A stretch of 64,000 bases of DNA from Vicinamibacterales bacterium (GTDB lineage Bacteria; Acidobacteriota; Vicinamibacteria; Vicinamibacterales; UBA8438). Positions 1 to 61,000 of the stretch are shown piece by piece. How positions within the stretch are numbered: position 1 is the stretch's first letter; every line of letters begins with the position of its first letter. The position numbers were made by a program, and so were the translations under genes. The stretch covers positions 876,182 to 940,181 of the forward strand of contig OZ241896.1 in NCBI GenBank assembly GCA_965203565.1. The letters are read 5' to 3'. The notes below the pieces were generated by a model, which had not been told where the DNA came from, did not search any database, and saw nothing but the letters and a program-made list of their open reading frames with translations.

Positions 1-1868
1 CCGTACTGGAACGTCAGCGTCTTCGTCCCGCTCCCGCCCGCGTAGCCCGCCTGCCGCGTCGCGCTCCCGATCGTCAGCGCCAGCCGGGGCGTCCCCGTCA
101 CCGTCACCGGGACCTGGAAGCCCACCTCCACCGCGATCGTCTCCCCCGCTCCATACGTGTCCCCGCTCGCCGGACGGCTCGAAAGCGCCACCGAGGTCAC
201 CGCCGGCGCCGGCGCCGTCGCCCCGTTCACCTTGTGGGCCGCCTGATTCGTCAGGCCTGCGTGCGCCAACGTCACTGAGCCGCTGAAGGCCACTCTGAAG
301 CCGGCGTTGTTGTGGGCCAGCGCGTTCGCCCCGATGCTCAGCCCGTCCGCGTCCACGTCCGCCGCCTGCACCACGTACGCGAACGTCAGCGTCTTCGTCC
401 CGTTCCCGCCCAGAAACGCCGCCTGCCGCGTCGCGTTCCCGATCGTCAACGCCAACGTCGGAGCCCCTCCTGCATCTATGCTGAGGGAAACCGGGGCGAA
501 CCCCACCGCCACCTCGATCCGCTCCCCCGCCCCGTACGTATCCCCGCTCACCGGCCGGCTCGCGAGCGTCAGGGACACCACCCGCGCCTCCGGCGCCTGG
601 TACCCGTTCACCTTGTGCCCCGCCGCATTCGCAATCGCATGCGTCCCCAGCCCCGGGATGGCGCTGATCGTCCCCCCGTTCAACGCCAGCGCGCCCGCCC
701 CGATGCTGATCCCGTTCGTGTCCGCGTCCTCGAACTGCACCACGTAGGCGAACGTCAGGGTCGCCGTCCCGCTCCCGCCCGCGTAATCCGCCTGCCGCGT
801 CGCGGTCCCGATCGTCAACGCCAACTGCGGACTCCCCGTCACCGTCACCGCCGCCGTGAACGTCACCGCCGCGCGGATCGTCTCGCCCCGCTTGTACGTG
901 TCCCGACTCTGCTGAGTGATTGGATGGGGCGCCGGACTGCTGCTGATCGCCACCGCGCTGACCGTCGGGGTCGCCGCGGTTCCGTCCACCTTGTGGCCCG
1001 CTTGGTTCGCCAGGGCGTGCGTACCCAACGCCAGCGCCGCGTTCGTCATCGCGGCGCTCCGGATCGTCCCGCCGTTGAGGGCCAGCGCGCCCGCCCCGAT
1101 CGCGATCCCGTCGCTGTCCGCATCGGCCGCCAGCACCGTGTAGCGGAACGTCAGCGTCCGCGTCCCGCTGCCGCTCGCGTACTCCGCCTGTCCCGTACTG
1201 GTTCCGATGGTCAGCGCGAGCCGCGGCGTCCCCGTCACCGTCACCGGAATCTGGAACCCCACCTGCGCCGAGATCGTCTCTCCCGCCCCGTACGTCATCC
1301 CGCTCGCCGGACTGCTGGCGATCGTCACCGCACCGACCGCCGGGGCCGTCGCGGCGCCGTTCACCTTGTGGCCCGCTTGATTCGCCAGGGCGTGCGTGCC
1401 CAACGCCAGCGTCGCGTCGGTCATCGCAGCGCTTTGGAGGGTTCCGCCGTTGAGGGTCAGCGCGCTCGCCCCGATCGCGATCCCGTCGCTGTCCGCATCG
1501 GTCGCCAGCACCGTGTAGCGGAACGTCAGCGTCCGCGTCCCGCTCCCGCTCGCGTACTCCGCCTGCCCCGTACCGGTTCCGATGGTGAGCGCGAGCTGCG
1601 GCGTCCCCGTCGCCGTCACCGCGATCGTGAACCCCACCTGCACCGAGATCGTCTCTCCCGCCCCGTACGTCATCCCGCTCGCCGGACTGCTGGCGATCGT
1701 CACCGCACTCACCGCCGGCGCGGTCTGCGAGAAGGCGGGCGGGACCTGCAGCAGGACCAGAAAGGCGAGGACTCCGAGGCGCCGGGCGGACGTTACTCCC
1801 CCCCCCCCCCCCCGAAGATTCCGGAGCCGTTCCAGCGGTCTTTGCGGCCCTGTGGAATACGCGCGCAT
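1..1868 (-). CDS. Secreted tandem-repeat surface protein (Ig-like beta-sandwich repeats); N-terminus complete, C-terminal part continues past the left window edge
   Basis: Absent from ORF track (no stop inside window). Hand translation of the minus strand from ATG 1868..1866: MRAYSTGPQRPLERLRNLRGGGGGVTSARRLGVLAFLVLLQVPPAFSQTAPAVSAVTIASSPASGMTYGAGETISVQVGF... It has a signal-peptide-like hydrophobic core. There are five copies of a ~123-132-aa repeat (..GTPxLALTIG....QAxY..GSGTxTLTFxY.V..DAD.DGI.IGA.AL.LNGGT...LGTHALANQAGHKVNG). The DNA marker GAACGTCAG recurs at 9, 381, 750, 1146 and 1521. The frame is still open at base 1 (..GTKTLTFQY). Confidence 0.7.
   Translation of the reverse strand, partial: MRAYSTGPQRPLERLRNLRGGGGGVTSARRLGVLAFLVLLQVPPAFSQTAPAVSAVTIASSPASGMTYGAGETISVQVGFTIAVTATGTPQLALTIGTGTGQAEYASGSGTRTLTFRYTVLATDADSDGIAIGASALTLNGGTLQSAAMTDATLALGTHALANQAGHKVNGAATAPAVGAVTIASSPASGMTYGAGETISAQVGFQIPVTVTGTPRLALTIGTSTGQAEYASGSGTRTLTFRYTVLAADADSDGIAIGAGALALNGGTIRSAAMTNAALALGTHALANQAGHKVDGTAATPTVSAVAISSSPAPHPITQQSRDTYKRGETIRAAVTFTAAVTVTGSPQLALTIGTATRQADYAGGSGTATLTFAYVVQFEDADTNGISIGAGALALNGGTISAIPGLGTHAIANAAGHKVNGYQAPEARVVSLTLASRPVSGDTYGAGERIEVAVGFAPVSLSIDAGGAPTLALTIGNATRQAAFLGGNGTKTLTFAYVVQAADVDADGLSIGANALAHNNAGFRVAFSGSVTLAHAGLTNQAAHKVNGATAPAPAVTSVALSSRPASGDTYGAGETIAVEVGFQVPVTVTGTPRLALTIGSATRQAGYAGGSGTKTLTFQY
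1798..1813. repeat. 16-nt homopolymeric C tract (poly-G on the coding strand) inside the 5' end of CDS 1..1868
   Basis: Counted directly: C at 1798-1813, flanked by T1797 and G1814. On the minus strand it encodes RGGGGG between ATG 1868 and the signal-peptide core. No ATG/GTG/TTG lies in frame between the tract and the hydrophobic core. Confidence 0.95.
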
Positions 1869-1923
1869 GGGATCGGGAATTATAAGCGCCTGCGATGCCA
1901 GGCCGGACCGCTCCCGCACGTAG

Positions 1924-1954
1924 TCATTTCCAATTCAGAAATGAGCCTGAAGGC
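1924..1954 (-). repeat. 33-nt motif, copy L (inverted relative to copies at 5825-5891 and 45143-45176); possible IS terminal inverted repeat
   Basis: The reverse complement reads CCTTCAGGCTCATTTCTGAATTGGAAATGACTA. Compare CCCTTCAGGCTCATCTGTCGTTGGAAACAACCTC (5825) and CCGTTCAGGCTCATTTGTCGTTGGAAGAGACTC (5858). Confidence 0.55.
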
Positions 1955-2542
1955 GGGCGGTGATCCGCGCCTGTCAGGCGACCGAACCGACGGGTCGAAA
2001 AGGGGTTCGGCGCGGGCCGCGCTCCGGACGGCCCGACCAGGCGATTATCGCTCATCGTCGTGTGAGTGAGGTTGCCCCGATTCTGCGAACGGGTTGACGC
2101 TTTCGGGTTCAGCTCATGCCGTGGTTTTCGGTGGGAGCACCTCCATGATGCAAGCGCTGTGGACCTGTGGGAATCTCGCGGCCTCGGCGCCGGCTCGATC
2201 GCCAGCGGTCGCCCGCGAGATTTCCAACGGACTGTGGGCGCCCCGTATCCCCGATCTTCCGGATGCATCCCGCTGCGGACCGGGCGTCCATAGGCCGGGC
2301 AGGTCCACAGCGCCCGGCGGCGATACGGGGCGCGGTGTGCGGCCAGGCGGCCGGCCGGCGGTCGCAACACCCGGTCTGCTGGCCCTGTCAGGCAGCCGGG
2401 TCGAGGGAGCGAAACAGCCGCTCGCGCGCGAGGTTGAGGGCGCGCGCGGCCTCGTTGTCGCTGCGGGCCGTGGCGACAGCGTCGAGTGGGTCGAAGGTGG
2501 TTCCGGGCTTGAGGCAGGCGGCGGCGGCGGGCAGCGACTTGG

Positions 2543-2700
2543 CAGCCCGTGGTGGAATCCCGCGTCGCACCGAGAGCGGCGAGGCGCCCGCCTGACAAGG
2601 CGTGAGGAGGGCGCATATTGGGCATACGCAACCGACGAACAACGCCGTCAGGCGGGATGCATCGCTGCTCGAATGCAGCGGAGACTTTCACCACGGGCTG
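2543..2700 (+). mobile_element. 158-bp MITE, copy a (inserted in the transposase pseudogene C-terminal region)
   Basis: Termini CAGCCCGTGGTGG...CACCACGGGCTG. Flanking 4-nt repeats are TTGG (2539-2542) and TTGA (2701-2704). Removing the element plus one repeat (162 nt) joins ..TPYERL to KSLPAAA.. in frame. Confidence 0.85.
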
Positions 2701-3305
2701 TTGAGCCTCTCGTAGGGGGTCATGACGTCCGCGGGGCGATAGCGCTTGCGGATCCGGCCCTGGGCATCGACCTGTTCGCGGGGGAAGAAGCAGGGGCGGT
2801 GGAAGTTGAGGTAGGGGGAGAGGACCTGCTGGGTGAAGGCGTTGACCTGCTCGGCGTAGCGGCTGGGGATGTGGCCGTGGCCGAGATGCTTCCGGAGCAC
2901 GGAGCCGTTCTTTGCTCTCGACCAGCGCATTGTCGTTGAGGACCGGGAGCAGGCAGGCGGCGTGGATGCGCTCGACCGAGCCGATGCACTGGAACTGCGT
3001 GACTTCGTCCACCAGATTCAGATGGTGGAGGCCCTTGATGCCGTCCAAATCGCCCTGATGGACCGTATCGACCCGGACCCAGCCGGGCCGTCCGAACGGC
3101 TGCGGGCGGCGGCGTTCCCCAATCGCGACCTGCGCCGGGCGGGTCGGCTGAGGGATCGCCCCGCGGCGCCGGGCATAGGTCGTCGAGCGTCGCAGGTTGT
3201 ACAGGTGGCTGATCAACGACAATTATTTTGGCCGGTCGTCGAGTGGAAATGGCCACGTGAAAAGGGACCCCCCAGCTTCCGTCAACCGGTCAATCGATAG
3301 CTCAC

Positions 3306-3464
3306 CAGCCCGTGGTGGAAACCCCGCGTCGCACCGAGAGCGGCGAAGCGCCCGCCTGACAAGGCGTGAGGAGGGCGCATATTGGGCATACGCAACCGAC
3401 GAACAACGCAGTCAGGCGGGATGCATCGCTGCTCGAATGCAGCGGGGTCTTTCACCACGGGCTG
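3306..3464 (+). mobile_element. 159-bp MITE, copy b (nested inside the HNH element)
   Basis: Same termini as copy a. A perfect 4-nt flanking repeat TCAC lies at 3302-3305 and 3465-3468. Confidence 0.85.
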
Positions 3465-3713
3465 TCACACCGCTGCGCACGAGCACGCTGCGGGTGGTGC
3501 GGGCCTTTCACTTTTTTCGCAGAAAGTACTTGACAGGATTTTTGTCGTCCCCTGCCGGATCTTTGGAACAGCCCTCAGCATGCCCCTCCGGCGGCCTCAG
3601 CCGCCTTCTGAGAGCCGTACGCCCACCGGAAGGTCGAAAAGCATTGAACGGACCGGGAACGGCCGCCTGAGAGCCGTACAAGCGGCTGAAAAACAAGGGG
3701 TTATCATAGGCGC

Positions 3714-4946
3714 ATGCCCCTCGAAACCACACCGGTTCCGGCCCCGTTTTCGCCTTCCGTCCGCCCTGTCCTTCCTCCGACGGCGCGCACCGCTTCCATT
3801 CCGGACCAACCCGATGCCGATCTCAACCGGTTGGCCGACCGGATCGCCGAACTCTCCGCCCGCATCCAGGCCGCCACCTATGCTCTGCTCGTCCTCATCC
3901 AGCAGTTCGACGAGCAGGGCGGCTGGCGGCCGGGCGGCTTCTCCTCCTGCGCCCACTGGCTGAGCTGGCGCACCGGCCTCGCCCCCGGCGCCGCCCGTGA
4001 GAAGGTGCGCGTCGCCCACGCCCTGGCCAAGTTGCCGCTCATCGGCGCCGCGATGCTGGCGCACGACGCAGCGGCGGCGCAGGGGGCGGATCATCCGACG
4101 TACGTTCCCGCGGGAATGTCTTCGGTCGTCCGACCCACAGCAGCCGGCCGCGCTACGGCAATCCGCCAGCCGGGAAGCGACGACGCGGCAGGCATCGGCG
4201 ACCCGCAGGGTGCGGCTGGCGACTCGGTTGACTCGGCGCCGACGGACATCGTATCGACCGGAGGAGAGCACGTTCCCGCGGGAACGCGCCGGCCGACGGG
4301 AGGCTCCGACGGGTCACATCCCGACGCCGCTGCTCGCGTCGCGCATGGTCAGGCGGTGCTGGAGGACGCCGGCGGGCTGCGCGTCTCCGCGGAAACGGCG
4401 CGCCGGCTGGCGTGTGACGCCGGGCGGGTCGTCATGACCCACGGCGTGGCCGGGCAGGTGCTGGACGTCGGCCGGAAGACGCGCACGATCCCGCCGGCGC
4501 TCCGCCGTGCGCTCGCCGCGCGGGATCGGCGTTGCCGCTTCCCAGGTTGCACGGCCCGGCGGTGCGATGCGCATCACGTCCGGCACTGGGCGCACGGCGG
4601 CGCGACCCGGCTCGACAACCTGGTGCAGCTCTGCCGGCGGCATCACCGGGCCGTGCATGAAGGCGGATTGCGGGTGATGCTCGACGACGCAGGCGCGGTC
4701 CGCTTCACGCGGGCGGACGGCCGGCCGCTGCCGGAGGTTCCGGAACCACCGCGCTGGACGGGGGCGGCGCTGGCGCCGGTGGACGCGCGGCTGGCGGCGG
4801 CGGGGATCGCGATCGGGCCAGGTGCGGCGATGCCGGCGTGGACCGGGGAGCGGCTGGATCTCGGCTGGGCGATGCGCGTGCTGTGGCGTCCGCGCGCGAG
4901 TCCGGCCGGGGCCGCGTCGGACGGGCCGCCGCCTCCGCCGGCGTGA
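3714..4946 (+). CDS. HNH endonuclease, DUF222/13E12-repeat-like (410 aa; central region low-complexity, possibly degenerate)
   Basis: ORF track 3714..4946. The N-terminus (LADRIAELSARIQAATYALLVLIQQFDEQGGWRPGGFSSCAHWLSWRTGLAPGAAREKVRVAHALAKLP) is typical of DUF222. The C-terminus carries LDVGRKTRTIPPALRRALAARDRRCRFPGCTARRCDAHHVRHWAHGGATRLDNLVQLCRRHHRAVH (HNH). Confidence 0.8.
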   Translation: MPLETTPVPAPFSPSVRPVLPPTARTASIPDQPDADLNRLADRIAELSARIQAATYALLVLIQQFDEQGGWRPGGFSSCAHWLSWRTGLAPGAAREKVRVAHALAKLPLIGAAMLAHDAAAAQGADHPTYVPAGMSSVVRPTAAGRATAIRQPGSDDAAGIGDPQGAAGDSVDSAPTDIVSTGGEHVPAGTRRPTGGSDGSHPDAAARVAHGQAVLEDAGGLRVSAETARRLACDAGRVVMTHGVAGQVLDVGRKTRTIPPALRRALAARDRRCRFPGCTARRCDAHHVRHWAHGGATRLDNLVQLCRRHHRAVHEGGLRVMLDDAGAVRFTRADGRPLPEVPEPPRWTGAALAPVDARLAAAGIAIGPGAAMPAWTGERLDLGWAMRVLWRPRASPAGAASDGPPPPPA

Positions 4947-5658
4947 CGCAGTGGTGGGACCGGCGCTGCTCGTCCGCGCGCGGAGGGACCGACGTTTCCG
5001 CCGCCGCCGCCCGTGCCCCGCGGGCGCGCCCCCGGCCCGCTGCTGCCCCGAACTCGCCGCTGGCCGCCCTCGTGACCCCCGGACGGTGTCCGCGAGCCGA
5101 GCAGCCGATCTCAATCCATGGTGAGCTGAACCGGCCAGAATAATTGTCGCCAAGCGGCCAAAGTAGTTGACGCTGAACAGGTGGCCGTTGGAGATCCGGG
5201 CCAGGCGCTCGAAGCGGCCGTCGCCGAACAGGCGCCAGGCGCGCGCACAAAGGGCGCGCGTGGCCGGGCCGGACAGCGTGCCGTGCAGCGCGTCCGTCTC
5301 GGCCAGCAACCCGATGTCGGCGCGGGTGTAGCGGCGGGCGAACGGCCGGCGCGGAGCGCCGCGCCGGTCGGTGACCGCGCCGGTGGTCCGGTGTTGGCGC
5401 AGCAGGCGGGTGACCTGCGCCCGTGACAGACCGGTCGCCCGGCTCAGAAAGCGGCGCAGCAGGCCCTTGTCGGGCTTCCCGCACAGGGCGTAGTCGAACC
5501 GTTGCACGGTCGTGGCCACCAACGCGCAGGCGTCGGCGCGGCGGTGCGGTTGCAGGGCGATCCCCGCGCTTCCGGCCAGGAACTCCCGAACCTGATCCAG
5601 GGTCTGCAGGCGGTGCGTGTCGAGTCTCACGATCATCCTCCGATGATCCGCGACTCGG

Positions 5659-5816
5659 CAGCCCGTGGTGGAATCCCGCGTCGCACCGAGAGCGGCGAGG
5701 CGCCCGCCTGACAAGGCGTGAGGAGGGCGCATATTGGGCATACGCAACCGACGAACAACGCCGTCAGGCGGGATGCATCGCTGCTCGAATGCAGCGGAGA
5801 CTTTCACCACGGGCTG
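5659..5816 (+). mobile_element. 158-bp MITE, copy c (between the transposase start and the putative IS end)
   Basis: Nearly identical to copy a. A perfect flanking repeat TCGG lies at 5655-5658 and 5817-5820. Confidence 0.85.
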
Positions 5817-5824
5817 TCGGCCCC

Positions 5825-42675: not shown

Positions 42676-42833
42676 CAGCCCGTGGCGGAGGTCCCCGCTG
42701 CATTCGAGCGGCGATGCATCCCGCCTGACTGCGTTGTTCGTCGGTTGCGTATGCCCAATATGCGCCCTCCTCACGCCTTGTCAGCCGGGCGCCTCACCGC
42801 TCTCGGCGCGACGCGGGACTCCACCACGGGCTG
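42676..42833 (-). mobile_element. 158-bp MITE, copy d (reverse orientation), 49 nt upstream of the ABC-F start
   Basis: The reverse complement aligns over its full length with copies a-c and e. The flanks are TCGA (42672-42675) and TCCGA (42834-42838). Confidence 0.8.
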
Positions 42834-42915
42834 TCCGAGAGCGGGACCGGCAGACTTCCGCCGCCCTTCGTTCGTCATAAGCTATGACAGCCTCGCCGCC
42901 CCGGCGCAGGAGCCG

Positions 42916-45967: not shown

Positions 45968-45994
45968 TTCAGCCCCATGCTGACCCCGGTCCAG

Positions 45995-46011
45995 CCCCCC
46001 CCCCCCCCCCC
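45995..46011. repeat. 17-nt homopolymeric C tract, 34-55 nt upstream of the giant CDS start
   Basis: Counted directly. An in-frame TGA at 46018-46020 shows the tract is outside the giant CDS. Confidence 0.95.
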
Positions 46012-46065
46012 GGACGCTGACGCCTCGCCGCCGACCGCCGCCCCGTGCCGTCGCCTCTTCAGCCC

Positions 46066-49000
46066 GTGAGACCGCTTCGCGCCGCAAGATTCGTCGTCGG
46101 GCTGCTGACCGCCGCCGTCTCGTGGACGTTCGCCGTCGACGCCGCCGCGCAGGACGGGGCGCCGACCCTCTCCATCGATTCGCCGCGCGTCGCCGAGGGC
46201 CACAGCGGCTCCACCTCCCTGACCTTCACGGTGACGCTCGCTCCGGCGAGCCACAAGACGGTCACGGCGCCCTACGCGGACTCCCGGACCGGCACCGCCA
46301 CGGCCGGCGCCGACTACAACGCGCTCGCTCCGGGAACCCTGACCTTCACCGCGGGGGAAACGAGCAAGACCATCACCGTGTCCGTGATCGGCGATACGGC
46401 GGCCGAGTCGGACGAAACCGTGGTGGTGGCGCTGGGCAAGGCCGACGGCGCCGCGGTCGGAACCGCGGCCGGAACCGGGACGATCGCCGACGACGACACG
46501 GCTCCGGCGCTCTCCATCGATTCGCCGCGCGTCAACGAAGGCGACGAGGGCGCGGTGAACCTCACCTTCACGGTGACGCTCGCCCCGACGAGCACGAAGG
46601 AGGTGACCGTCGGATACGCCGAGGGCGCCGGCGGCACCGCCACGGCCGGCGCCGACTACAACGCGCTCGCCCCGGGAACCCTGACCTTCGCCGCGGGGGA
46701 CGCCAGGAAGACGGTCACCGTCTCGGTGATTCCGGACACGAAGGCCGAACCGAACGAAACCGTGGTGGTGACGCTGTCGAAGCCGGAGAACGCGACCATC
46801 GCCCGCGCGACCGGAACCGGGACGATCACCGACGACGACGCAGCCCGCCCGTCGCTCTCGATCGCGGGAGCGACGGTCACGGAAGGAACCGGGGGTTCGA
46901 CGGATCTGACCTTCACCGTGACGCTGAGCGCGGCCAGTGCGGCCGGGGTCACCGTGGACTACGCCACCGGGACCGGCGGTACGGCGGTCTCCGGAACGGA
47001 CTACACGGCCGTTTCCGGGACGCTGACCTTCACCGCGAACGACACCACCGAAACCCTTTCCGTCCCGGTCACGACCGACGCGACGGACGAAAACGACGAA
47101 ACGGTGACGGTAATCCTGTCGAACCCGGTGAACGCGACGATCTCCACCGCCTCCGGCGTCGGGACCATCACGGACGACGACGCCCCTCCGACGGTGTCCA
47201 TCGCCTCGGCGCGCGCGGCCGAGGGAGACAGCGGCTCGAACGACCTGGAGTTCACCGTGTCGCTCGGCGCCGTGAGCGGCCGCGAGATCACCGTGGACTA
47301 CGCCACCGGGACCGGCGGCACGGCGGTCTCCGGAACGGACTACACGGCCGTTTCCGGGACGCTGACCTTCGCCGCGGGCGTGACGAATCGAACGGTCACG
47401 GTCGCCACCATCGGCGACACCACCGACGAACCGAACGAAACGGTCGTCGTGGCGCTCCGCAACGCGGTGAACGCCTCGCTCGGCGCCGCCACCGCCACCG
47501 GAACGATCACCGACGACGACGACCCGCCCACGGTGACGCTCTCGCTGTCGTCGGGCTCGATCTCGGAGGCCTCCGGCACGACGGCGGTCTCGGCGACGCT
47601 GAGCCACGCATCGAGCGCAGCGACGACGATCGCCATCCCCGCCCGGTCGCTGGCCTGGACGGTTCCCGCGGATGCGTCCATCACCATCCCCGCGGGCGCG
47701 ACCGCGAACAGCGCGGACACGGTGACCCTCACCGCCATAGACAACACCTCCGACGAGCCGGACCGGAGGTACACGGTCACCGGTTCGGCGAGCAACGCGA
47801 TAGGCGCGGGCGCGGTGACCGGCGCCGCCCTCACCATCACCGACGACGACCCGAGCCCCGGCGGCCAGTGCGCGTCGGAGGGGGTCGACCTGCAGTTCGC
47901 GGTGTCTCCGGGGACGATCGCCGAAAACGGCGGGACCGCCACCGTAACGGTGAAGGCGCTCGCCCCCGACCTCGCCGTCGTCCAGGTGCTGTTCGGCTTC
48001 TCCGGAGCGACGCAAGGTACGCATTTCACGGTGACCGGGAGCGGGACCGCCCAGTCCGGCGTCGGCTGGCTGCTGGGCGTCCCGGGGGGCGCCGCGAGAA
48101 CCACCTCGACCTTCACGGTCACGGCGCAGGACAACAGCGATTTCGAGACCCGCACGCTGCGGATGGACATCGCTGTCCTGAACGTCGCCGGCTGTTCCTT
48201 CCCGTCGCAGGAAGTCGTCATCCGGGACGACGACGCCGCGCTGGTGACCTCCGCCGTCAGCGGCCAGGCGACGGAGGCGGGCGGCGCCGCCACCTTCACC
48301 GTGCGGCTGGCGAGCCGTCCCACGGCGAGCGTGTCGGTGGCGCTGTCGAGCGCCGACTCCGGCGAAGGGACCGTCAGCCCGACGAACCTCACCTTCACGC
48401 GCACGAACTGGAACTCACCGCAGACGGTCACGGTGACCGGAGTGGACGACGACTTCCACGACGGCGATCGGAGGTACGCCGTGCGCCTCGGCCGGCCCGC
48501 GACCACCGATGCCGGATACGGCCGGCTCGGCCCGCGGGAAGTGTCCGTCAGCACGACCGACGACGAGTCGCCGCCGCGGGTGACCCTGTCGGTGTCCCCG
48601 AGTTCCGTTTCGGAGAACGGCGGAACGGCGCGGGTCTCGGCGACCCTCGGCGTGGCCTCGGAGGCCGCGACCACGATCACGATCTCCCCGGTGTCCGGCG
48701 CCTACACCGTCGGAAGCGACGCGACGATCACCATACCCGCCGGCGCCACCGCGAACGCCGCCGACACGGTGACGGTGACCGCGGTGGACAACGGCGCGGA
48801 CGAGGTGGACCGGACGCCGATAGTGACCGGGACCGCCTCCAACCCGCTCGGCGTCGGCGCGGTCACCGGCGCCGTCCTCACGCTGACCGACGACGACGGA
48901 GCGCCGACGGTGATTCTGTCCGTCTCGCCGGCGCGCATCTCCGAAGCCGGGGGGACGGCGACGATCCGGGCGGCGCTGTCGAGCGCCTTTTCCTCGGACA

Positions 49001-52000
49001 TCGAAGTGTCCGTCTCCGGACTTCTCGGTGTCTACCGGGTCCCCGACACAGCGATCGTCATCCGGGCCGGTTCGACGACCAGCGAGAACACGTTGACCCT
49101 CACCGCGGCGAACAACCCGACCGACGCCCCCGACCGCGCGCTCGTGATTTCCGGGCGCGCCCGTTACACCACCGACTCCGGCGCCGCGGCGACGGCGGCC
49201 GTGCGCCCGGCGTCGCTGACCATCGTGGACGACGATCTGCCTTCGGGCTCTTCCCCGATCTTCATCAATGCCCGCGGGCAGAGGACCAGCGAGAGCAGCG
49301 CCGGGACCGGAACGACCTTCGCCATCGGGTTCCACGTCATCCTCTCCCACCCCGCCCGCAGCGAGGGCGTCACCGTGGACTACGCGGTGACTTCCGGCAC
49401 CGCGACCGCAGGCCAGGACTACCGCGCGGGACGCGACTTCGCGAACGTCCTGCGCGGCGGCGGCACGGTCCTGGGCGGCACGCTGACCTTCGCCGCCGGC
49501 GAGCAGCGGAAGTGGATCTACCTGGAGGGGCTGAAGGACGGAGTGACCGAACCGGTCGAGACGGTGGTCGTGGGGCTCAGTAACGCGACGAACGCGACGA
49601 TCGGACAGGCGACGATCCGCTCGACGATTTCGGACGGCGCGCTGCCGCCGTACCTGACGATCTCTCCGGTGCATCAGTACACCGGCGAAGGCGGCGTCAT
49701 GCGGTTCTCGGTGACGATGGATTCGCTGGCTTCCGGGACGGTCACCGTGGACTACGCCGACGCCGGCACGGGCACGGCGACATCCGGATCGGACTACACG
49801 GCGGTGACCTCCGGGACCCTGACGATGGGCAGTCTGGTCGAGTACATCCAGGTGCAGACGCTGAACGACACGGTGGACGAAGAGAACCACGAGACGTTCG
49901 TCCTGCGGTTGAGCAACGCGACGAACGCCACCTTCACCGACAACGCCGCCACGACGACCGGAACCGGCATCATCGTGGACGACGACGCCCCGCCGACCGT
50001 CTCCATCGACTCGCCCACCGTCGCCGAAGGCGACAGCGGACGCCGGAACCTCGACTTCACGGTGACCCTGGGGTCGGCCAGCGGGCGCACGGTCGAGGCC
50101 ACATACCGGGACGTCGCCGGGACCGCGGACACCCGCGACTATGTGGAAGTTCGCGGAACCCTGACCTTCGCGCCGGGGGAAACGAGCAAGACGGTGTCCG
50201 TCCCCGTGAAGGGAGACACGACGGACGAAGAAGACGAGACCCTGGACCTGCTTCTGACCAGCAACCACCTCACGCTCACCGCGTCGTCGCGGCGCGCGAC
50301 GGGAACGATCACGGACGACGACGACGAACCGCAACTGGGCATCTCCGCCGGGAGCGTCACCGAAGGGGACGACGGCTCGACGACGCTGACCTTCACCGTG
50401 AGCCTGAGCGCGGCGAGCGGGAAGTCGGTCACCGTGGAGTACGAGGACGCGGGCACGGGAACGGCGGCTTCCGGCGCGGACTATACCGCGCTCCCGGCGG
50501 GAACGCTCACTTTCGCCGCCGGCGAAACGAGCAAGACCGTGACGGTTTCCGTTACCGGAGACGAGACCGACGAACCGAACGAGACCGTCGTCCTCGAACT
50601 CAGCGATCCCGTGAACGCGACGATCTCGACGGCGTCCGCCTCCGGCACGATCACCGATGACGACGATGCCGCGACGGTGACGCTTTCGCTCTCCCCGGAT
50701 TCCCTCGCGGAAGGCGGCCGGGACGAGGTGAGCACGGTTACGGCGACGCTGGACCGCGCGACCGGCCGGGAGACGGTGGTCACGGTGTCCGCGGCGGCGG
50801 GGACGAACGCCGCCGCTTCCGACTTCCGGCTGAGTTCGAACACCGAACTCCGGATCGCCGCCGGCGCGACCTCGAGCACCGGCACGGTGACCATCACCGC
50901 GGTGGACAACGCCGCCGATCAACCGACGAGGAGCGTCACCGTGTCCGGTTCGGCGGCGAGCGACCTCGAAATCCGGGATCCGTCCGCGGTGACGCTGACG
51001 ATCACCGACGACGACCCGGCGCCGACGGCGGCGATCGACTCGCCGAGCGTCACCGAGGGCGACGACGGCGACACGGCGCTGCTGGGGTTCACCGTGAGTC
51101 TCAGCGCGGCGAGCGGCAAGACCGTCGAAGTCGCCTACGGCGAAGACGCCACCGAGAGCACGGCCGAATCAGGGACGGACTACACGGCCGTGGGGAGCGG
51201 CAAGGTCACCTTCACCCCCGGGGAGACCAAGAAGACGATAGCGGTATCGGTTACCGGAGACGAGCTGGACGAAGACGACGAGACCGTTTCGATCAAGTTG
51301 ACGAGCGCGAAGGAGGCGACGATCAACACCTCCGGCGACTCCGGCACGGGCACGATCACCGACGACGACGACGAGCCGTCACTCTCGATCTCCTCCCCGA
51401 GCGTGAGCGAAGGCGACAGCGGCGCCACCGACCTGGCCTTCACCGTGACCCTGGACGCGGCCAGCGGGCGGCGGATCACCGTCGCCTACGCGGACGCCGG
51501 GACGGGATCGGCCCGGAGCGGAACGGACTACGCCGCGATCAGCGGCGGCGCCCTGACCTTCGCGGCCGGCGAAACGAGCAAGACGGTGACGGTGTCGGTG
51601 CGGGGGGACACGGCCGACGAGCCGAACGAGACGGTGGTGGTGGCCCTGAGCAGCCCCACGAACGCGACGGTGTCGGCCACGGCGGGCCGCGGCACAGGGA
51701 CGATCACCGACGACGACGACGCGCCGACGGTGACGCTGGCGCTGTCCCGGACATCGATAGCGGAGAGCGGGGCGACCAACTCGGCGACGGTGACCGCGAG
51801 CCTGGACCGGGCGTCGTCCGAGGACACGACGGTGACGGTGTCGGCGGCGGCGGGGGCGGCCACGGCGGCGACGGACTTCACGCTGAGCGCCAGCCCGACG
51901 CTGACCATCGCGGCCGGCAGCACGAGCAGCAGCGGGACGGTCACGGTGACCGCGGTGGACAACACGCGGGACGAGGCGGACAAGAGCGTGACCGTGTCCG

Positions 52001-55000
52001 GTTCGGCGACCAACAGCCAGGGGATCACGCAGCCTTCGGCGGTGACGCTGGCGATCACCGACGACGACGATGCGCCGACGCTGTCGATCGACGCGCCGAG
52101 CGTGGCGGAGGGAAACAGCGGCTCGGCGGACCTGACGTTCACGGTGAGTCTGGACGCGGCCAGCGGGAAGGAGATCACCGTCGCGTACGCGGAGGGTACG
52201 GGCGGCACGGCGACGTCGGGCGCCGACTACACGGCGCCGAGCGGCGGGACGCTGACGTTCGCGGCGGGAGAGACGAGCAAGACGGTGACGGTCTCGGTGC
52301 GGGGGGACACGACCGACGAGCCGAACGAGACGGTGGTGGTGGCCCTGAGCAGCCCGACCAACGCAACCGTGTCGGCCACGGCGGGCAGCGGCGCCGGGAC
52401 GATCACGGACGACGACGATGCGCCGACGGTGACCCTGGTGCTGTCGCGGAGTTCGATAGCGGAGAGCGGGGCGGCCAACTCGACGACGGTGACCGCGAGC
52501 CTGGACCACCCTTCGTCGTCGGCGACGACCATCACGGTGGCGGCGGCGGCGGGAGCGGCCACGGCGGCGACGGACTTCGCGCTGAGCAGCAACACGACGC
52601 TGACGATCGCGGCCGGCGGCACGACCAGCAGCGGGACGGTGACGGTCACCGCGGGGGACAACACGCGGGACGACCCGGACAAGAGCGTGACGGTGTCGGG
52701 TACGGCGACCAACGCGCAGGGGATCACGCAGCCGGCGGCGGTGACGCTGACGATCACCGACGACGACGACGCGCCGACGGTGACCCTGGCGCTGTCGCGG
52801 AGTTCGATAGCGGAGAGCGGCGCGACCAACGCGGCGACGGTGACCGCGAGTCTGGACCGGGCGTCAAGTCAGCAGACGACGGTGACGGTTTCCGCGGCGC
52901 CGGGCGCGAACGCGGCGAACGGCGACTTCAGCCTGAGCGCCAGCCCGACGCTCACCATCGCGGCGGGGGCGACGAGCAGCAGCGGGACGGTGACGGTCAC
53001 GGCGGTGGACAACACGCGGGACCAGGTCGACAAGAGCGTGACGGTGTCGGGTTCGGCGGCGAACTCGCAGGGAATCACGCAGCCGTCGTCGGTGACGCTG
53101 ACGATCACCGACGACGACGGGGCGCCGACGCTGTCGATCGACGCGCCGAGCGTGACGGAGGGCGACAGCGGCTCGGCGAACCTGACGTTCACGGTGAGTC
53201 TGCGTCCGGCCAGCGGCCGGCAGGTGACGGTGAACTACGCGGAGGGAACGGGCGGCACGGCGACGTCGGGTACGGACTACACGGCGCTGAGCGGCGGGAT
53301 GCTGACGTTCGCGGCGGGGGAGACGAGCAAGACGGTGACGGTGCAGGTGCGGGGGGACACGACCGACGAGCCGAACGAGACGGTGGTGGTGGCCCTGAGT
53401 GGGGCAACGAATGCGACGGTGTCGGCCACGGCAGGCCGCGGCACAGGGACGATCACCGACGACGACGACGCGCCGAAGGTGACCCTGGCGCTGTCGCGGA
53501 CCTCGATCGCGGAGAGCGGCGCGACCAACGCGGCGACCGTGACCGCGAGCCTGGATCGGGCATCGTCCGCATCGACGACGGTGACGGTTTCGGCGGCGCC
53601 GGGGGCGGCCACGGCGGCGGGAGACTTCAGCCTGAGCAGCAACACGACGCTGACGATCGCGGCGGGCAGCACGAGCAGCAGCGGAACGGTGACGGTGACG
53701 GCGGTGGACAACACGCGGGACCAGGTCAACAAGAGCGTGACGGTGTCGGGTTCGGCGGCGAACTCGCAGGGAATCACGCAGCCGTCGTCGGTGACGCTGA
53801 CGATCACCGACGACGACGGGGCGCCGACGCTGTCGATCGACGCGCCGAGCGTGACGGAGGGCGACAGCGGTTCGGCGAACCTGACGTTCACGGTGAGTCT
53901 GAGTCCGGCCAGCGGCCGGCAGGTGACGGTGAACTACGCGGAGGGAACGGGCGGCACGGCGACGGCGGGAACGGACTACACGGCGCTGAGCGGCGGGATG
54001 CTGACGTTCGCGGCGGGGGAGACGAGCAAGACGGTGACGGTGCAGGTGCGGGGGGACACGACCGACGAGCCGAACGAGACGGTGGTGGTGGCCCTGAGCA
54101 GCCCGACCAACGCGACGGTGTCGAGCACCGCCGGCACGGGGACGGGGACGATCACCGACGACGACGACGCGCCGACGGTGACCCTGGCGCTGTCGCGGAC
54201 CTCGATCGCGGAGAGCGGCGCGACCAACGCGGCGACCGTGACCGCGAGCCTGGATCGGGCATCGTCCGCATCGACGACGGTGACGGTTTCGGCGGCGCCG
54301 GGGGCGGCCACGGCGGCGGGAGACTTCAGCCTGAGCAGCAACACGACGCTGACGATCGCGGCTGGCGCAACGAGCAGCACGGGGTCGGTGTCGGTGACGG
54401 CGGTGGACAACACGCAGGACGCGGCGAACAAGAGCGTAACCGTGTCCGGTTCGGCGACCAACTCGCAGGGAATCACGCAGCCGGCGGCGGTGACGCTGAC
54501 GATCACCGACGACGACGGGGCGCCGACGCTGTCGATCGACGCGCCGAGCGTGACGGAAGGCGACAGCGGCTCGGCGAACCTGACGTTCACGGTGAGTCTG
54601 AGTCCGGCCAGCGGCCGGCAGGTGACGGTGAACTACGCGGAGGGAACGGGCGGCACGGCGACGTCGGGTACGGACTACACGGCGCTGAGTGGCGGGATGC
54701 TGACGTTCGCGGCGGGGGACACGAGCAAGACGGTCACGGTCTCGGTGCGGGGGGACACGACCGACGAGCCGAACGAGACGGTGGTGGTGGCCCTGAGCAG
54801 CCCGACCAACGCGACGGTGTCGGCCACGGCAGGCCGCGGCACGGGGACGATCAACGACGACGACGCGACGCCGAAGGTGACGCTGGCGCTGTCGCGGACT
54901 TCGATCACCGAGAGCGGCGCGACCAACGCGGCGACGGTGACTGCGAGTCTGGATCGGGCATCGTCCGCATCGACGACGGTGACGGTTTCGGCGGCGGCCG

Positions 55001-58000
55001 GTGCGAACGCGGCGGCCGGGGACTTCCGGTTGAGCAGCAATGCGACGCTCACCATTGCAGCCGGGAGCACGAGCAGCAGCGGGACGGTCACGGTCACCGC
55101 GGTGGACAACTCCACCGACGAGGCGGACAAGAGCGTGACGGTGTCGGGTTCGGCGACCAACTCGCAGGGAATCACGCAGCCGGCGGCGGTGACGCTGACG
55201 ATCACCGACGACGACGATGCGCCCACGCTGTCGATCGACGCGCCGAGCGTGACGGAGGGCGACAGCGGCTCGGCGAACCTGACGTTCACGGTGAGTCTGA
55301 GTCCGGCCAGCGGCCGGCAGGTGACGGTGAACTACGCGGAGGGAACGGGCGGCACGGCGACGTCGGGTACGGACTACACGGCGCTGAGCGGCGGGATGCT
55401 GACGTTCGCGGCGGGGGACACGAGCAAGACGGTGACGGTGCAGGTGCGTGGGGACACGACCGACGAGCCGCACCAGACGGTGGTGGTGCAGTTGAGCGGG
55501 CCGACGAACGCGAGCCTTGCGACGGCTTCCGGAACGGGAACGATCCGGGACGACGACGCCTTGCCGTCGCTGTCGGTCAGTTCACCGAGCGTGACGGAGG
55601 GGGACAGCGGAACGAAGAACCTGACGTTCACGGTGACGTTGAGCGCGGCGAGCGAGAAGCGTGTCCGTACGGTGTTCGCGCTGACGGGGGGCACGGCGAC
55701 GCTGGGCACGGACTACACGACGACGCTGGGGAGGAACCCGCCCCGGTCGTCGCTGGTGTTCTCGGCGGGTCAGACGAGCCGGTCGGTGTCGGTGACGGTG
55801 CGGGGGGACACGACGGACGAGCCGGACGAGACGGTGGTGGCGCGGCTGTCCGGTGCGCAGAACGCGGTGATCGGGACGGGAACGGGGACAGGGACGATCA
55901 CGAACGACGATGCGGCGCCGACGGTGACGGCGAATGCGGGATCGGACCAGACGGTGGACGAGGGCGACTCGGTGAGCCTGTCGGGAAGCGGTTCGGGTCC
56001 TGCCGGCGAGGCGCTGAGCTACGCGTGGCGTCAGACGGGGGGCAGTCCGAGCGTGACGCTGACGGGTTCGGCGACGGCGACGCCGAGCTTCACGGCGCCG
56101 AACCTGACGTCGAACGCGACGTTGACGTTCACGCTGACAGTGACGGCGGGCGGTTCGAGCGCGACGGACGCGGTGGCCATCACGGTCCGGGCGGACAACG
56201 ACGGTCCGACGGCGAACGCGGGACAGGACCAGACGGTGGACGCGGGGGACACGGTGAACCTGTCGGGGAGCGGCTCGGACCCTGAGAACGAGGCGCTGAG
56301 CTATTCGTGGAGTCAGACGGGGGGCAGCCCGAACGTGAGTCTGACGGGGTCGGCGACGGCGACGCCGAGCTTCACGGCGCCGTCGGGTCTGACGTCGGAC
56401 GCGGTTCTGACGTTCACGCTGACGGTGACGGCGGGGGGCGCGAGCGCGACGGACACGGTGGCGATCACGGTCGAGGCGCCGGCCGCATTGCCGACGTTGT
56501 CGATCGATTCGCCGAGTGTGAACGAGGGGGACAGCGGCTCGGCGAACCTGACGTTCACGGTGACGTTGAGCGCGGCGAGCGCCAGCCAGGTGACGGTGGC
56601 GTATGCGGATGCGGGGACGGGGACGGCGACGTCGGGCACGGACTACACGGCGCTGCCTTCGGGGACGTTGACGTTCTCGGCGGGGGATACGAGCAAGACG
56701 ATCACGGTGTCGGTGACGGGGGACACGACGTACGAGTCCAACGAGACGGTGGTGGTGCAGTTGAGCAGTCCGACGAACGCGACGGTGTCGTCGTCTGCGG
56801 GGAGCGGGACGGGGACGATCCGGGACGACGAGCGGCCGATGCTGTCGGTGAATTCGCCGAGCGTGACGGAGGGGGACAGCGGCTCGACGAACCTGACGTT
56901 CACGGTGAGCCTGAACCCGGCGAGCGGGCGGAACGTTGCGGTGGTGTTCGGGATCACGGGGGGCACGGCGACGTCGGGTACGGACTACACGACGTCGCTG
57001 CAGAACAACCGGTTGCGTCTGCGCTTCCGGCCGGGGGAGACGAGCAAGTCGGTGTCGGTGTCGGTGCGTGGGGACACGCTCGACGAGCCGGACGAGACGG
57101 TGGTGGCGCAGTTGAGCGGGGTCTCCCTTGGCGCGGAGATCGGGACGGGAACCGGGACCGGGACGATCACGGACGACGACGACGCGCCGCCGGTGTCGAT
57201 CGGCTCGGCCAGCGTGACGGAGGGGAACAGCGGCTCGACGGATCTGACGTTCACGGTGAGTCTGGACGCGGCGAGCGGCAAGCAGGTGACGGTGAACTAC
57301 GCGGACGCGGGTACGGGGACGGCGACGTCGGGCGCGGACTACGCGGCGCTGAGTGCGGGTCGGTTGACGTTCGCGGCGGGGGAGACGAGCAAGTCGGTGT
57401 CGGTGTCGGTGCGTGGGGACACGACGGACGAGCCGGACGAGACGGTGGTGGTGCAGTTGAGCGGGGCGACGAACGCGGCGGTGTCGTCGTCTGCGGGGAG
57501 CGGGACGGGGACGATCACGGACGACGACGCGGCGCCGTTTCTGCGGACCGGCCCGGCGCGCGTGGCGGAGGGGGACAGCGGTCCGGCCTCGCTGACCTTC
57601 ACGTTGACGCTGGTGTCGGCGAGCGGGAAGTCGGTGTCGGTGGCGTATGCGGACGCGGGGACGGGGACGGCGACGAGCGGTACGGACTACGCGGCGCTGA
57701 GTGCGGGGACGTTGACGTTTGCGGCGGGTGAGACGAGCAAGACGCTCACGGTGTCGGTGACGGGGGACACGGCGACCGAGCCGAACGAGACGGTGGTGGT
57801 GTCGCTGAGCAGTCTGACGAACGCGAGGTTCCTGACGTCGAGCATGGCCAGGCTGACGGGGACGATCACGAACGACGACAGCTTCCCGACGGCGAATGCG
57901 GGACCGGACCAGACGGTGGACGAGGGCGACACGGTGAGCCTGTCGGGGAGCGGTTCGGACGCTGACGGCTCCCCGCTGAGCTATGCGTGGAGCCAGACGG

Positions 58001-61000
58001 GGGGCAGTCCGAGCGTGACGTTGACGGGTTCGACGACGGCGACGCCGAGCTTCACGGCTCCGAACCTGACGTCGGACGCGACGCTGACGTTCACGCTGAC
58101 GGTGACGGCGGACTTCGAAGGCGCGGCGGACGCGGTGGAGATCACGATCCGGGCGGACAACGACGGTCCGACGGCGAACGCGGGACCGGACCAGACGGTG
58201 GACGAGGGGGACACGGTGAACCTGTCGGGGACCGGCTCGGACCCCGAAGGCGATCCGGTGAGCTACTCGTGGAGCCAGACGGGGGGCAGTCCGAACGTGA
58301 CGTTGACGGGTTCGACGACGGCGACGCCGAGCTTCACGGCGCCGTCGGGTCTGACGTCGGACGCGGTTCTGACGTTCACGCTGACGGTGACGGCGGGGGG
58401 CGCGAGCGCGACGGACACGGTGGCGGTCACGGTCCAGGCGCCGACGCCGGCCGCATTGCCGTCGCTGTCGATCGATTCGCCGAGCGTGACGGAGGGGGAC
58501 AGCGGGACGGCGTCTCTGACGTTCACGGTGACGTTGAGCGCGGCGAGCGGCAGTGCGGTGACGGTGGGGTATGCGGACGCGGGTACGGGGACGGCGACGT
58601 CGGGCACGGACTACACGGCGCTGCCTTCGGGGACGTTGACGTTTGCGGCGGGCGAGACGAGCAAGACGGTGACGGTGCTGGTGCGTGGGGACACGACGGA
58701 CGAGGCGCACCAGACGGTGGTGGTGCAGTTGAGCGGGGCGACGAACGCGAGCATTTCGACGGCGTCCGGGACGGGGACGATCCGGGACGACGACGCCTTG
58801 CCGTCGCTGTCGGTGAACTCTCCGAGCGTGACGGAGGGGGACAGCGGAACGAAGAACCTGACGTTCACGGTGACGTTGAGCGCGGCGAGCGAGAAGCGTG
58901 TCCGTACGGTGTTCGCGCTGACGGGGGGCACGGCGACGCTGGGGACGGACTACACGACGACGCTGCTGAGGAACCGGTCGTCGCTGGTGTTCTCGGCGGG
59001 GGATACGAGCAAGTCGGTGTCGGTGTCGGTGCGTGGGGACACGACGGACGAGCCGGACGAGACGGTGGTGGCGCGATTGAGCGGCCCGCAGAACGCGGTG
59101 GTCGGGACGGGAACGGGGACGGGAACGATCACGGACGACGACGACGCGCCGACGGTGTCGATCGGTTCGGCGAGCGCGACGGAGGGGAACAGCGGGACGA
59201 CGGATCTGACGTTCACGGTGAGCCTGTCTGCGGCGAGCGGGAAGTCGGTGTCGGTGGCGTATGCGGATGCGGGGACGGGGACGGCGACGAGCGGTGCGGA
59301 CTACACGGCGCTGAGCGCGGGTCGGGTGACGTTCTCGGCGGGGGATACGAGCAAGGCGGTGACGGTGTCGGTGCGGGGAGACACGACGGACGAGCCGAAC
59401 GAGACGGTGGTGGTCACCCTGAGCAGCCCGACGAACACGAGCATCTCGACGGCGTCCGGGACGGGGACGATCACGGACGACGACGCGGCTCCGACGGTGA
59501 CGCTGGCGCTGTCGCGGAGTGCGATAGCGGAGAGCGGGACGACGAACTCGACGGCGGTGACGGCCCGCTTGAACCATGCGTCGAGCGCGGCGACGACGGT
59601 GACGGTGTCGGCGGCTGCGAGCACGAACGCGGTGAGCGGGGACTTCTCGCTGAGCAGCAACCGCACGCTGACGATAGCGGCGGGTTCGACGAGCAGCACG
59701 GGCGTGGTGACGGTGACGGCGGTGGACAACACGCAGGTTGCGGCGAACAAGAGCGTGACGGTGTCGGGTTCGGCGACGAACAGCCAGGGGATTGTGCAGC
59801 CGTCGTCGGTGACGCTGACGATCACGGAAGACGAACTGACGGTGAACGCGGGACAGGACCAGACGGTGACGGAGGGCGCCGGGGTGAGCCTGTCGGGGAG
59901 CGGTTCGGACCCTGAGAACCGTCCGTTGAGCTACTCGTGGAGCCAGACGGGGGGCAGTCCGAGCGTGACGCTGACGGGTTCGACGACGGCGACGCCGAGC
60001 TTCACGGCGCCGAACCTGACGTCGGACGCGACGCTGACGTTCACGCTGACGGTGACGGCGGGGGGCGCGAGCGGCACGGACACGGTGGCGGTCACGGTCC
60101 AGGCGGACAACGACGATCCGACGGCGAACGCGGGACAGGACCAGACGGTGACCGAGGGGGACACGGTGAACCTGTCGGGGAGCGGTTCGGATCCCGAGGG
60201 CGAGACGCTGAGCTACTCGTGGAGCCAGACGGGGGGCAGCCCGAACGTGACGTTGACGGGTTCGACGACGGCGACGCCGAGCTTCACGGCTCCGGAACTG
60301 AAGGCGAACGCGGTTCTGACGTTCACGCTGACGGTGACGGCGGGGGGCGCCAGCGCGACGGACTCGGTGGCGGTCACGGTCCAGGCGGACGACGACGGCC
60401 TGACGGTGGACGCGGGAGCGGACCAGACGGTGGACGCGGGGGACACGGTGAACCTGTCGGGGAGCGGCTCGGACCCCGAGGGCGATCCGGTGAGCTACTC
60501 GTGGAGCCAGACGGGGGGCAGCCCGAACGTGACGTTGACGGGTTCGACGACGGCGACGCCGAGCTTCACGGCGCCGAGCGTGACGGCGGACGCGACGCTG
60601 ACGTTCCGGCTGCTGGTCCGGGCGGGCAGCGACAGCGCGGCGGACACGGTCGACGTCACCGTCCGGGCGGCGGCATTGCCGACGCTGTCGATCGATTCCC
60701 CGAGCGTGAACGAGGGGGACAGCGGCTCGGCGAACCTGACGTTCACGGTGACGTTGAGCGCGGCGAGCGCCAGCCAGGTGACGGTGGCGTATGCGGACGC
60801 GGGGACGGGAACGGCGACGAGCGGGACGGACTACACGGCGCTGCCTTCGGGGACGTTGACGTTCTCGGCGGGGGATACGAGCAAGACGATCACGGTGTCG
60901 GTGACGGGGGACACGACGTACGAGTCCAACGAGACGGTGGTGGTGCAGTTGAGCAGTCCGACGAACGCGACGGTGTCGTCGTCTGCGGGGAGCGGGACGG

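Follow-up and report, generated by a model that had tools for sequence, protein, structure and literature searches.

Does a long run of a single base switch a giant repeat-protein gene on and off when it lies at the gene's 5′ end? The question is raised by a 64,000-nt stretch of DNA (hereafter the window, meaning the whole stretch that was analysed) from a Vicinamibacterales bacterium (GenBank assembly GCA_965203565.1, contig OZ241896.1, forward-strand positions 876,182 to 940,181), in which 16 consecutive G residues (tract 1, or G16) lie among the first codons of gene 1, a gene for a secreted protein built of tandem repeats. A reading made from the letters of the window without database searches (the sequence-only reading) had proposed that the tract is a slipped-strand ON/OFF phase switch. 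The best explanation found here keeps part of that proposal: G16 would be a contingency-type homopolymer in the region that controls, from the 5′ side, a giant gene for a secreted Ig-like repeat protein, exerting a leader-based control by length that takes an ON/OFF form in this allele. We are evenly divided on whether this explanation is right.

The G16 tract and its reading frame

The 5′ region of gene 1 contains the following features:

1..1868, minus strand: gene 1, open at the left end of the window; its 5′ 622 codons hold five tandem repeats (each ~125 aa) of an uncharacterised Ig-like domain.
1813..1798, minus (coding) strand: tract 1, G16 (C16 on the plus strand, 1798-1813), codons 19-24 (R-G-G-G-G-G) of the open reading frame (ORF) that begins at ATG 1868.
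1866..1868, minus strand: ATG, the likeliest translation start of the window allele, in frame with the gene only at 13, 16 or 19 G.
1917..1919, minus strand: alternative in-frame GTG start, 17 codons 5′ of ATG 1868; the frame is closed by a stop at 1937.
1879..1884, minus strand: TATAAT, a -10-like hexamer that ends 10 nt 5′ of ATG 1868 and may serve as the promoter for an mRNA with a very short leader or none.
1725..1796, minus strand: signal-peptide-like segment VTSARRLGVLAFLVLLQVPPAFSQ, which abuts tract 1; predicted mature start TAPAV.

Read from ATG 1868, the N-terminus of gene 1 is MRAYSTGPQRPLERLRNLRGGGGGVTSARRLGVLAFLVLLQVPPAFSQ|TAPAV (N-terminal peptides MRAYSTGPQRPLER / NLRGGGGGVTSAR), followed by the ~125-aa tandem repeats. 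Both the coordinates and the frame given by the sequence-only reading were reproduced: the tract occupies 1813..1798 within codons 19-24 and is read as RGGGGG. When the region was rebuilt in silico with 12-21 G, the upstream in-frame start was kept only at 13, 16 and 19 G, which bears out the claim that a 16-G tract is in frame with ATG 1868. In the two other phases, to which the gene is shifted by 15 or 17 G, a stop at 1882 or 1926 closes the frame and there are zero start codons inside, and ATG, GTG and TTG are all absent from the stretch between the tract and the hydrophobic core of the signal peptide; a change of +1 or -1 thus removes the usable start, as had been proposed. One element of the earlier account has to be corrected: ATG 1868 is not the sole in-frame start upstream, since the overlooked GTG at 1919-1917 is in frame as well.

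Tract 1 is real and far beyond chance. The window has a G+C content of 71.6%, and a first-order Markov model predicts ~2e-4 (G) and ~2e-5 (C) runs of at least 16 nt in 64 kb; two are observed (G16 and a C17 described below), and aside from these no run in the 64-kb window exceeds 7. The tract is therefore longer than base composition predicts, and in silico it is placed where a change in length alters translatability, both of which are characteristic of a contingency locus. The same strain is also covered by an independent long-read contig (L004, labelled 2x), which matches window positions 1-5015 with 0 mismatches and carries the tract as G18 with both flanks identical. Its sole differences from the window are seven homopolymer insertions, the +2 in the tract among them, and at 2x coverage it accordingly proves the existence of the tract and not its length; G18 was considered as an OFF allele and dropped for the same reason.

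How credible is ATG 1868 as a start? Of 20 other gene starts in the window, 6 have a TAnnnT sequence ending 4-9 nt before the start codon, where 0.13 would be expected (P ~2e-9), suggesting widespread use of leaderless mRNAs in this genome. Because TATAAT ends 10 nt upstream of ATG 1868, much as in this leaderless-type arrangement, the ATG is a credible start on sequence grounds, and the geometry fits a gene 1 start at the 5′-terminal AUG of a leaderless or nearly leaderless mRNA, at the spacing predicted here. Gene starts that have TAnnnT 4-9 nt upstream and lack a Shine-Dalgarno sequence include those at 5934, 16560, 29821, 3714, 10346 and 38303.

Leader tracts in a sister strain, at a second gene and in other lineages

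A sister strain is represented by two Illumina contigs from two other samples (L026 and L028), which were found through a TPI sequence 96% identical to that of the window and which both end within the orthologous 5′ region of gene 1. The sister strain keeps TATAAT and ATG and carries G20 at the orthologous place in both contigs; this length is approximate, because L026 ends 2 nt past the tract and a scaffold gap interrupts L028 5 nt past it. Just 5′ of the tract, the sister strain has 20 nt inserted and, abutting the tract, a direct duplication of 7 nt (AATCTTC AATCTTC; L028 261-274, minus strand). On its 3′ side the sister strain has at least 52 extra nt with in-frame GTG, TTG and GTG codons, followed by the same signal peptide (QSVRRLGVLAFLILLWVPPAFSQ). 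This segment is absent from the window, which has GTA at the place of the last GTG, and L004 has the same shorter arrangement as the window. The sister-strain AUG would yield a peptide of only three codons: its frame meets TAG at codon 4, where the window has TAT. By this comparison, the sister-strain tract is part of an untranslated leader between a conserved promoter-like TATAAT and a normal start. The TAG and the downstream starts imply that frame switching is not the conserved function of the tract and that the in-frame ON/OFF arrangement is, as far as the aligned sequences tell, specific to the window allele. Judged by the duplication and the 20-nt indel, the leader around the tract is prone to insertion and deletion.

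The second long homopolymer of the window lies at the start of a second giant gene:

45995..46011, plus (coding) strand: tract 2, C17, 54 nt 5′ of the GTG start of gene 2.
46066..64000, plus strand: gene 2, giant Calx-beta repeat protein with signal peptide VRPLRAARFVVGLLTAAVSWTFAVDAAAQ; >5,970 codons in the window, open at the right end.
45977..46069, plus strand: upstream ORF in which tract 2 encodes poly-proline (MLTPVQPPPPPP...); its TGA overlaps the gene 2 GTG (GTGA).

Both long homopolymers of the 64-kb window thus sit at the 5′ ends of its two giant secreted repeat-protein genes. Tract 2 is untranslated in the frame of gene 2 because an in-frame TGA (46018-46020) separates it from the gene 2 ORF (Pfam Calx-beta match, E = 3e-59). 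A strain that is ~98% identical (L001) has CCA-C15-T at this site, compared with CCAG-C17 in the window. The upstream ORF raises the possibility that translation could be coupled to the main gene in a manner dependent on tract length. A comparable poly-proline upstream ORF is present at a homologous locus (L006 4862-4999), with a stop 1 nt before the main start (TGAtGTG) and a strong AGGAGG. As a general rule, coupling through upstream ORFs was rejected: it is seen only at tract 2 and in L006 and is broken in L001, where the upstream ORF would end 46 nt earlier.

Do such tracts recur beyond these strains? A homologue search with the first 223 residues of gene 1, followed by genomic context look-ups, led to two loci. 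In L006, C16 lies 24 nt 5′ of the start of a 41%-identical homologue, in a gene cluster that ends in an autotransporter domain. In L007, G15 lies 1 nt 5′ of the ATG, and GGGAGGGGGGAGGGGGGGG-ATTC-ATG stands ahead of a second paralogue. Scanning species-representative genomes with a single protein returned 12 loci, all from metagenome-assembled genomes (MAGs) of diverse lineages. Among the homologous giant ORFs (1,900-4,000 aa), 6 of ~10 visible 5′ ends have coding-strand poly-C just 5′ of a start and signal peptide:

L010, Longimicrobiales: C20.
L012, Latescibacterota: C21.
L013, Alphaproteobacteria: C26.
L014, Dehalococcoidia: C11.
L015, Alphaproteobacteria: C15.
L020, Alphaproteobacteria: C17.

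With L006 and L007, eight homologous giant genes have tracts of 11-26 nt just 5′ of their starts. Homologous giant genes bearing such tracts come from no fewer than five other named lineages. Across 447 kb, all 15 G/C runs of at least 10 nt (15/15) are at giant-gene starts, corresponding to 10 independent loci. The tracts are uninterrupted in 10 loci, 10 of the 11 observed lengths are at least 15 nt, the coding strand carries G at 2 loci and C at 8, and the leader tracts lie 1-54 nt 5′ of the start codon. The leader position of window tract 2 and of the tracts in 8/8 homologues implies that retention of tracts across lineages is not due to reading-frame switching. We also considered whether tracts have been retained in frame with upstream starts, and found no signal (6/10 loci, 5.0 expected).

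Shared signals around the tracts were sparse. No consistent -10/-35 element or flanking motif common to the tract loci was found, and no TAnnnT lies between tract and start at the remaining loci, except possibly TAAATC in L012. In four loci (L012, L013, L015 and L020), two or three of which are related alphaproteobacterial loci and not all independent, TA stands directly 5′ of the poly-C run (compare TACT at window 1792-1797, plus strand). This TA may be a -10-like element that places the transcription start inside the run and so makes reiterative transcription possible.

Two further sets of homologues deserve mention. The closest paralogue or orthologue (76% amino-acid identity) lacks a pure tract and carries an interrupted C-rich run ~150 nt 5′ of its start (CCCCCCTCCTCCCTCCC in L005, 2710-2730; CCCCCCTCCTCCCCTCCC in L008, ~9850), which may be a decayed tract; the run differs by one C between these two 99%-identical assemblies. 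Giant genes of a Nitrospirales (L016) and an alphaproteobacterial (L017) genome are 81% identical in DNA over 11.5 kb, from position 9922; the identity begins exactly at the mature N-terminus, the upstream regions are unrelated, and the likeness reflects either lateral transfer between phyla or a binning error.

Tract lengths differ between related sequences. At the orthologous site of tract 1, a comparison that the sequence-only reading had put forward as a check, the lengths are 16 (window), 18 (L004) and 20 (L026 and L028), all from homopolymer-error-prone consensus assemblies. For tract 2, lengths of 17 (window) and 15 (L001) come from assemblies of the same error-prone kind, and for the pair L015 (C15) and L020 (C17), whose genes are 88.8% identical with related flanks, only consensus assemblies were compared. 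Illumina variants of the L007 tract (L021 and L022) were discarded as polymorphism because they are too error-prone. Further copies were sought in two ways: the exact flanking sequences of the two tracts, each scanned against Joint Genome Institute (JGI) metagenomes, gave 0 matches each, and look-ups of neighbouring proteins (HNH, an 80-aa ORF, TPI cluster representatives and a MazE paralogue) returned the window-strain tract only in L004, plus the sister-strain copies. L023 proved to be the same contig as L004, and the P0249 MazE loci are unrelated.

Competing explanations for the tract

In the explanation that we favour, replication slippage would frequently lengthen or shorten the run by at least one base, and a promoter with TATAAT at 1884-1879 would start the mRNA at or just before ATG 1868. 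With tract 1 inside the only usable reading frame, as the in silico rebuilding showed, protein would be possible at 16, 13 and 19 G and impossible at 15, 17 and 18 G, and the outcome would be a heritable, reversible ON/OFF switch. The ancestral and common role of the tracts would presumably be a length-dependent tuning of transcription or translation initiation from the leader; the frame switch in the window would be a secondary consequence, since the segment with the downstream start is absent here. The proposal of phase-variable expression for gene 1 thus survives in part. A real tract is present at the 5′ end of a secreted giant gene and one length class in three is translatable; the coding position is not conserved, and switching itself is a prediction. 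Because the sister strain and the homologues have leader tracts, the ON/OFF claim would hold for the window allele only.

Several points weigh against this explanation. First, canonical starts lie 3′ of the tract in the sister strain (GTG/TTG/GTG), where the ATG frame is closed by TAG, as well as at tract 2 and at 8/8 homologous loci, and, taking each tract at its observed length, the loci show no excess of in-frame upstream starts. Second, the in-frame state of the window allele has a prior of ~1/3 by chance. Third, a consensus promoter scan of 1600-2300 found no -35/-10 pair. Fourth, RNA folds of the tract regions are unremarkable (no special structure, z-scores of +2.9 and -0.9) and the tract region has zero matches in Rfam, so that a role through RNA structure gains no support as a mechanism for leader-located tracts. 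Fifth, all length comparisons are between consensus assemblies, which treat long homopolymers badly, and not between reads. Finally, G16 exceeds the length of the RNA-DNA hybrid, so that RNA polymerase slippage could blur a strict ON/OFF distinction.

In the alternative that survives best, though we think it rather unlikely, the tract would serve in the leader or promoter through its structure or composition and not through length, for example as a G-quadruplex, an i-motif, an R-loop or a site for a poly(C)/poly(G)-binding factor. It would follow that the window allele is a rearranged derivative without its native start, that the in-frame ATG 1868 is coincidental, and that gene 1 may be silent or decaying. 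An untranslated tract with a downstream start, as in the sister strain, at tract 2 and at all eight homologous loci, is what such an element would predict, and the lack of enrichment of in-frame upstream starts agrees with it; yet long pure homopolymers are unstable, and a run kept for structure only should gather interruptions, of which the 10 loci have none. A pure G run needs at least 15 nt to form an intramolecular quadruplex. Nearly all observed lengths reach this minimum (10/11), but orthologous tracts differ in length, and the variable orientation (G on the coding strand at 2 loci, C at 8) argues against one strand-specific structure. Rearrangement of the window allele is suggested by the missing segment of at least 52 nt that includes start codons in the sister strain, by GTA in place of GTG, and by the insertion sequence (IS) remnants and miniature inverted-repeat transposable element (MITE) copies in the upstream region. 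Decay of the gene is harder to reconcile with a gene 1 body that is intact over 622 codons with a third-position G+C (GC3) of 0.89, and coincidence with an ATG 1868 that has the typical leaderless promoter geometry of this genome.

A broader proposal, which we consider unlikely, is that the 15-26-nt poly-C/G run is a conserved 5′-leader module that moves with giant Ig-like/Calx-beta adhesin genes among unrelated, probably sponge-associated phyla and exerts a frame-independent control so far undescribed in bacteria. Possible mechanisms would include a length-tuned G-quadruplex, an i-motif or R-loop block, or reiterative transcription. If this were true, symbiont populations would hold a graded mix of adhesin expression states, and the in-frame allele of the window would be one offshoot.

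Slippage could also take place during transcription. RNA polymerase slippage on G16 would produce mRNAs with mixed numbers of G, a fixed fraction of them in frame, and the tract would then be a constitutive attenuator (a rheostat) and not a heritable switch. Transcriptional slippage becomes efficient once a run exceeds the 8-9-bp RNA-DNA hybrid, as G16 does, and tracts of 15-26 nt are longer than those of classical contingency loci, which typically have 7-13 nt. We nevertheless find this quite improbable as a full account: such slippage is best documented for A/T runs, it leaves the retention of leader tracts in homologues unexplained, as those cannot affect the frame, and it is compatible with DNA-level switching and not a replacement for it.

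That the tract is a sequencing or assembly artefact (two-colour poly-G read tails or a chimeric join, for example), which the sequence-only reading had named as a ground for abandoning its proposal, is effectively refuted: Illumina contigs do end or gap at tracts (L022, L026, L028) and flanks differ in some Illumina copies (L021), but tract 1 has the same two-sided flanks in the window and L004 and an orthologous counterpart in two sister-strain assemblies from different samples, tract 2 is common to the window and a different strain (L001), and eight more loci from different organisms and projects have a tract at the same relative position.

The proteins, their setting and known systems

Gene 1 extends at least 5.8 kb past the window, as seen in L004. 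Searches of Pfam, NCBIfam and PDB sequences gave its repeat no credible match; the sole Pfam row for the gene is Toprim, a marginal hit of 24.4 bits without a matched stretch. An AlphaFold2 model of one repeat unit is all-beta, with a predicted local distance difference test (pLDDT) score of 96, and its fold matches are weak and Ig-like (sulfite-oxidase C-terminal domain, nanobodies, FN3; all E ≥0.02). A profile search gathered 19,014 cluster representatives, 4,700 of them at E ≤1e-30; members are mostly 1,000-7,900 aa long, with up to 39 repeats. By sequence similarity, the repeat defines a large uncurated family of giant Ig-like repeat proteins. Homologues share an ...AQ|T(A)P(A/T)V signal-peptide junction. 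Among 150 giant family representatives, Gly/Pro runs occur in the first 100 residues at ~3x the background rate, and one protein (P0406, MARILRGGGGGGTRESPGG...signal peptide) mirrors the order of the window, a tract and then a signal peptide. The gene 1 product is predicted to be surface-exposed or to interact with a host, because it combines a signal peptide with Ig-like beta-sandwich repeats, the second giant gene encodes Calx-beta repeats, and an autotransporter domain ends a homologue locus; it is probably a surface adhesin.

Mobile DNA lies upstream of both tracts. The window has five MITE-like copies of ~160 bp that are 94-100% identical, with terminal inverted repeats CAGCCCGTGGTG...CACCACGGGCTG and no Rfam match:

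2543-2700: MITE-like copy.
3302-3464: MITE-like copy.
5659-5816: MITE-like copy.
42676-42834: MITE-like copy, reverse orientation.
45807-45967: MITE-like copy that ends 27 nt 5′ of tract 2.

The last of these is missing from L001 and is therefore a polymorphic insertion, possibly with TTCA duplicated at its site. Between gene 1 and gap lies a mobile-DNA patch (2100-5820) with a remnant of an rve-type integrase, a DUF222-HNH gene (3714-4946) and three of the MITE copies; sister strains have a MazE-PIN pair in its place. In L008, the homologous gene has at its 3′ end an IS-end sequence that shares 84% identity with the one at 2151-2322.

The window also encodes gap-pgk-tpi-secG; among named homologues, its TPI is closest to those of Acidobacteria and Vicinamibacterales MAGs (64-71% identity). 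Lineages that bear homologues of the giant gene include Latescibacterota, Gemmatimonadota, Dehalococcoidia, Nitrospirales, Binatia, Spirochaetaceae and a bin named COS4. Sponge microbiomes are described as enriched in attachment proteins, which also undergo lateral transfer (PMC8163846). The taxon mix resembles that of those microbiomes, and by this analogy, drawn solely from the taxon mix and one bin name, the genome may be host-associated. The remark of the sequence-only reading that such a switch is unusual for a high-GC environmental-type genome needs qualification on both counts: the high-GC part is overstated, given the tracts of Bordetella (67% G+C; PMC1891110), and the environmental-type label is open to doubt if the organism is host-associated, as the taxon mix would suggest.

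Why would such a tract matter here? Homopolymer-slippage phase variation is a hallmark of host-adapted pathogens. Literature searches did not find it described for uncultured symbionts of sponge-type microbiomes. In the sequences compared, from Acidobacteriota-like, Longimicrobiales, Latescibacterota, Dehalococcoidia and Alphaproteobacteria genomes, giant adhesin-like genes that are laterally shared have long C/G runs at their starts. The pattern suggests that an expression switch prone to slippage, of a known kind, operates in organisms for which none had been described. Symbionts may thus diversify their surfaces stochastically, as pathogens do, with a bearing on host recognition, phage escape and colonisation. 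There is a practical side as well: the tracts break short-read contigs exactly at giant genes, and gene callers are inconsistent about the starts nearby. The idea is directly testable with existing high-accuracy long reads of the source metagenomes.

Known systems offer four points of comparison. Transcriptional slippage at long homopolymers occurs in the poly-A tracts of insect endosymbionts, and programmed slippage in dnaX and mxiE. G16 is similar in being a run longer than the RNA-DNA hybrid inside the coding region of a putatively host-associated bacterium, so that expression could hinge on polymerase infidelity, and differs in that the known cases are A/T runs. A plausible model for leader-located tracts is the T-tract "rheostat" of the Helicobacter pylori sabA promoter, where length is reported to tune adhesin expression with the frame unaffected (PMC4081817). 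That system, as described there, has a T-tract in an AT-rich genome and works through promoter geometry and DNA bending, whereas a GC-only run is physically different.

The window allele itself is most similar in form to the poly-G/C tracts that Neisseria, Haemophilus and Campylobacter carry in 5′ coding regions (PMC5084427, PMC6321876, PMC3723659): a homopolymer lies in the first codons of a surface-protein ORF (the autotransporters NalP and MspA are examples), and a +1 or -1 change destroys the frame. Those tracts are shorter (7-13 nt, compared with 16-20 nt for tract 1), belong to low- or medium-G+C pathogens and have been validated by deep sequencing and phenotype. The coding position seen here is, in contrast, allele-specific; the sister strain and homologues carry theirs in the leader.

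The closest known system, by analogy, is that of the C/G tracts of Bordetella, which are 7-22 nt long in the fim2, fim3 and fimX promoters and 9-17 nt long inside tcfA, bapC and BB3110 (PMC1891110). They are polymorphic between strains and species, and the C-stretch's length alters transcript abundance (Gogol et al. 2007, PMC1891110). In the fim-type arrangement, the C-stretch lies between the site of an activator (BvgA, the "fim box") and the -10 element, and its length sets the promoter geometry. Gene 1 departs from this arrangement: its TATAAT is 5′ of the tract, not 3′, with no recognisable activator "fim box" and no flanking motif common to the tract loci, and most of the tracts described here lie 1-54 nt from a start, which suggests a leader position rather than one in a promoter spacer. 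The organism is also unlike Bordetella in being uncultured and probably an acidobacterium, and the genes are giant Ig-like/Calx-beta repeat genes (2,500 to >5,900 aa), not genes for fimbrial subunits. What the two systems have in common is a high-G+C host and pure C/G runs that lie upstream of, or in the 5′ part of, genes for envelope adhesins and autotransporters.

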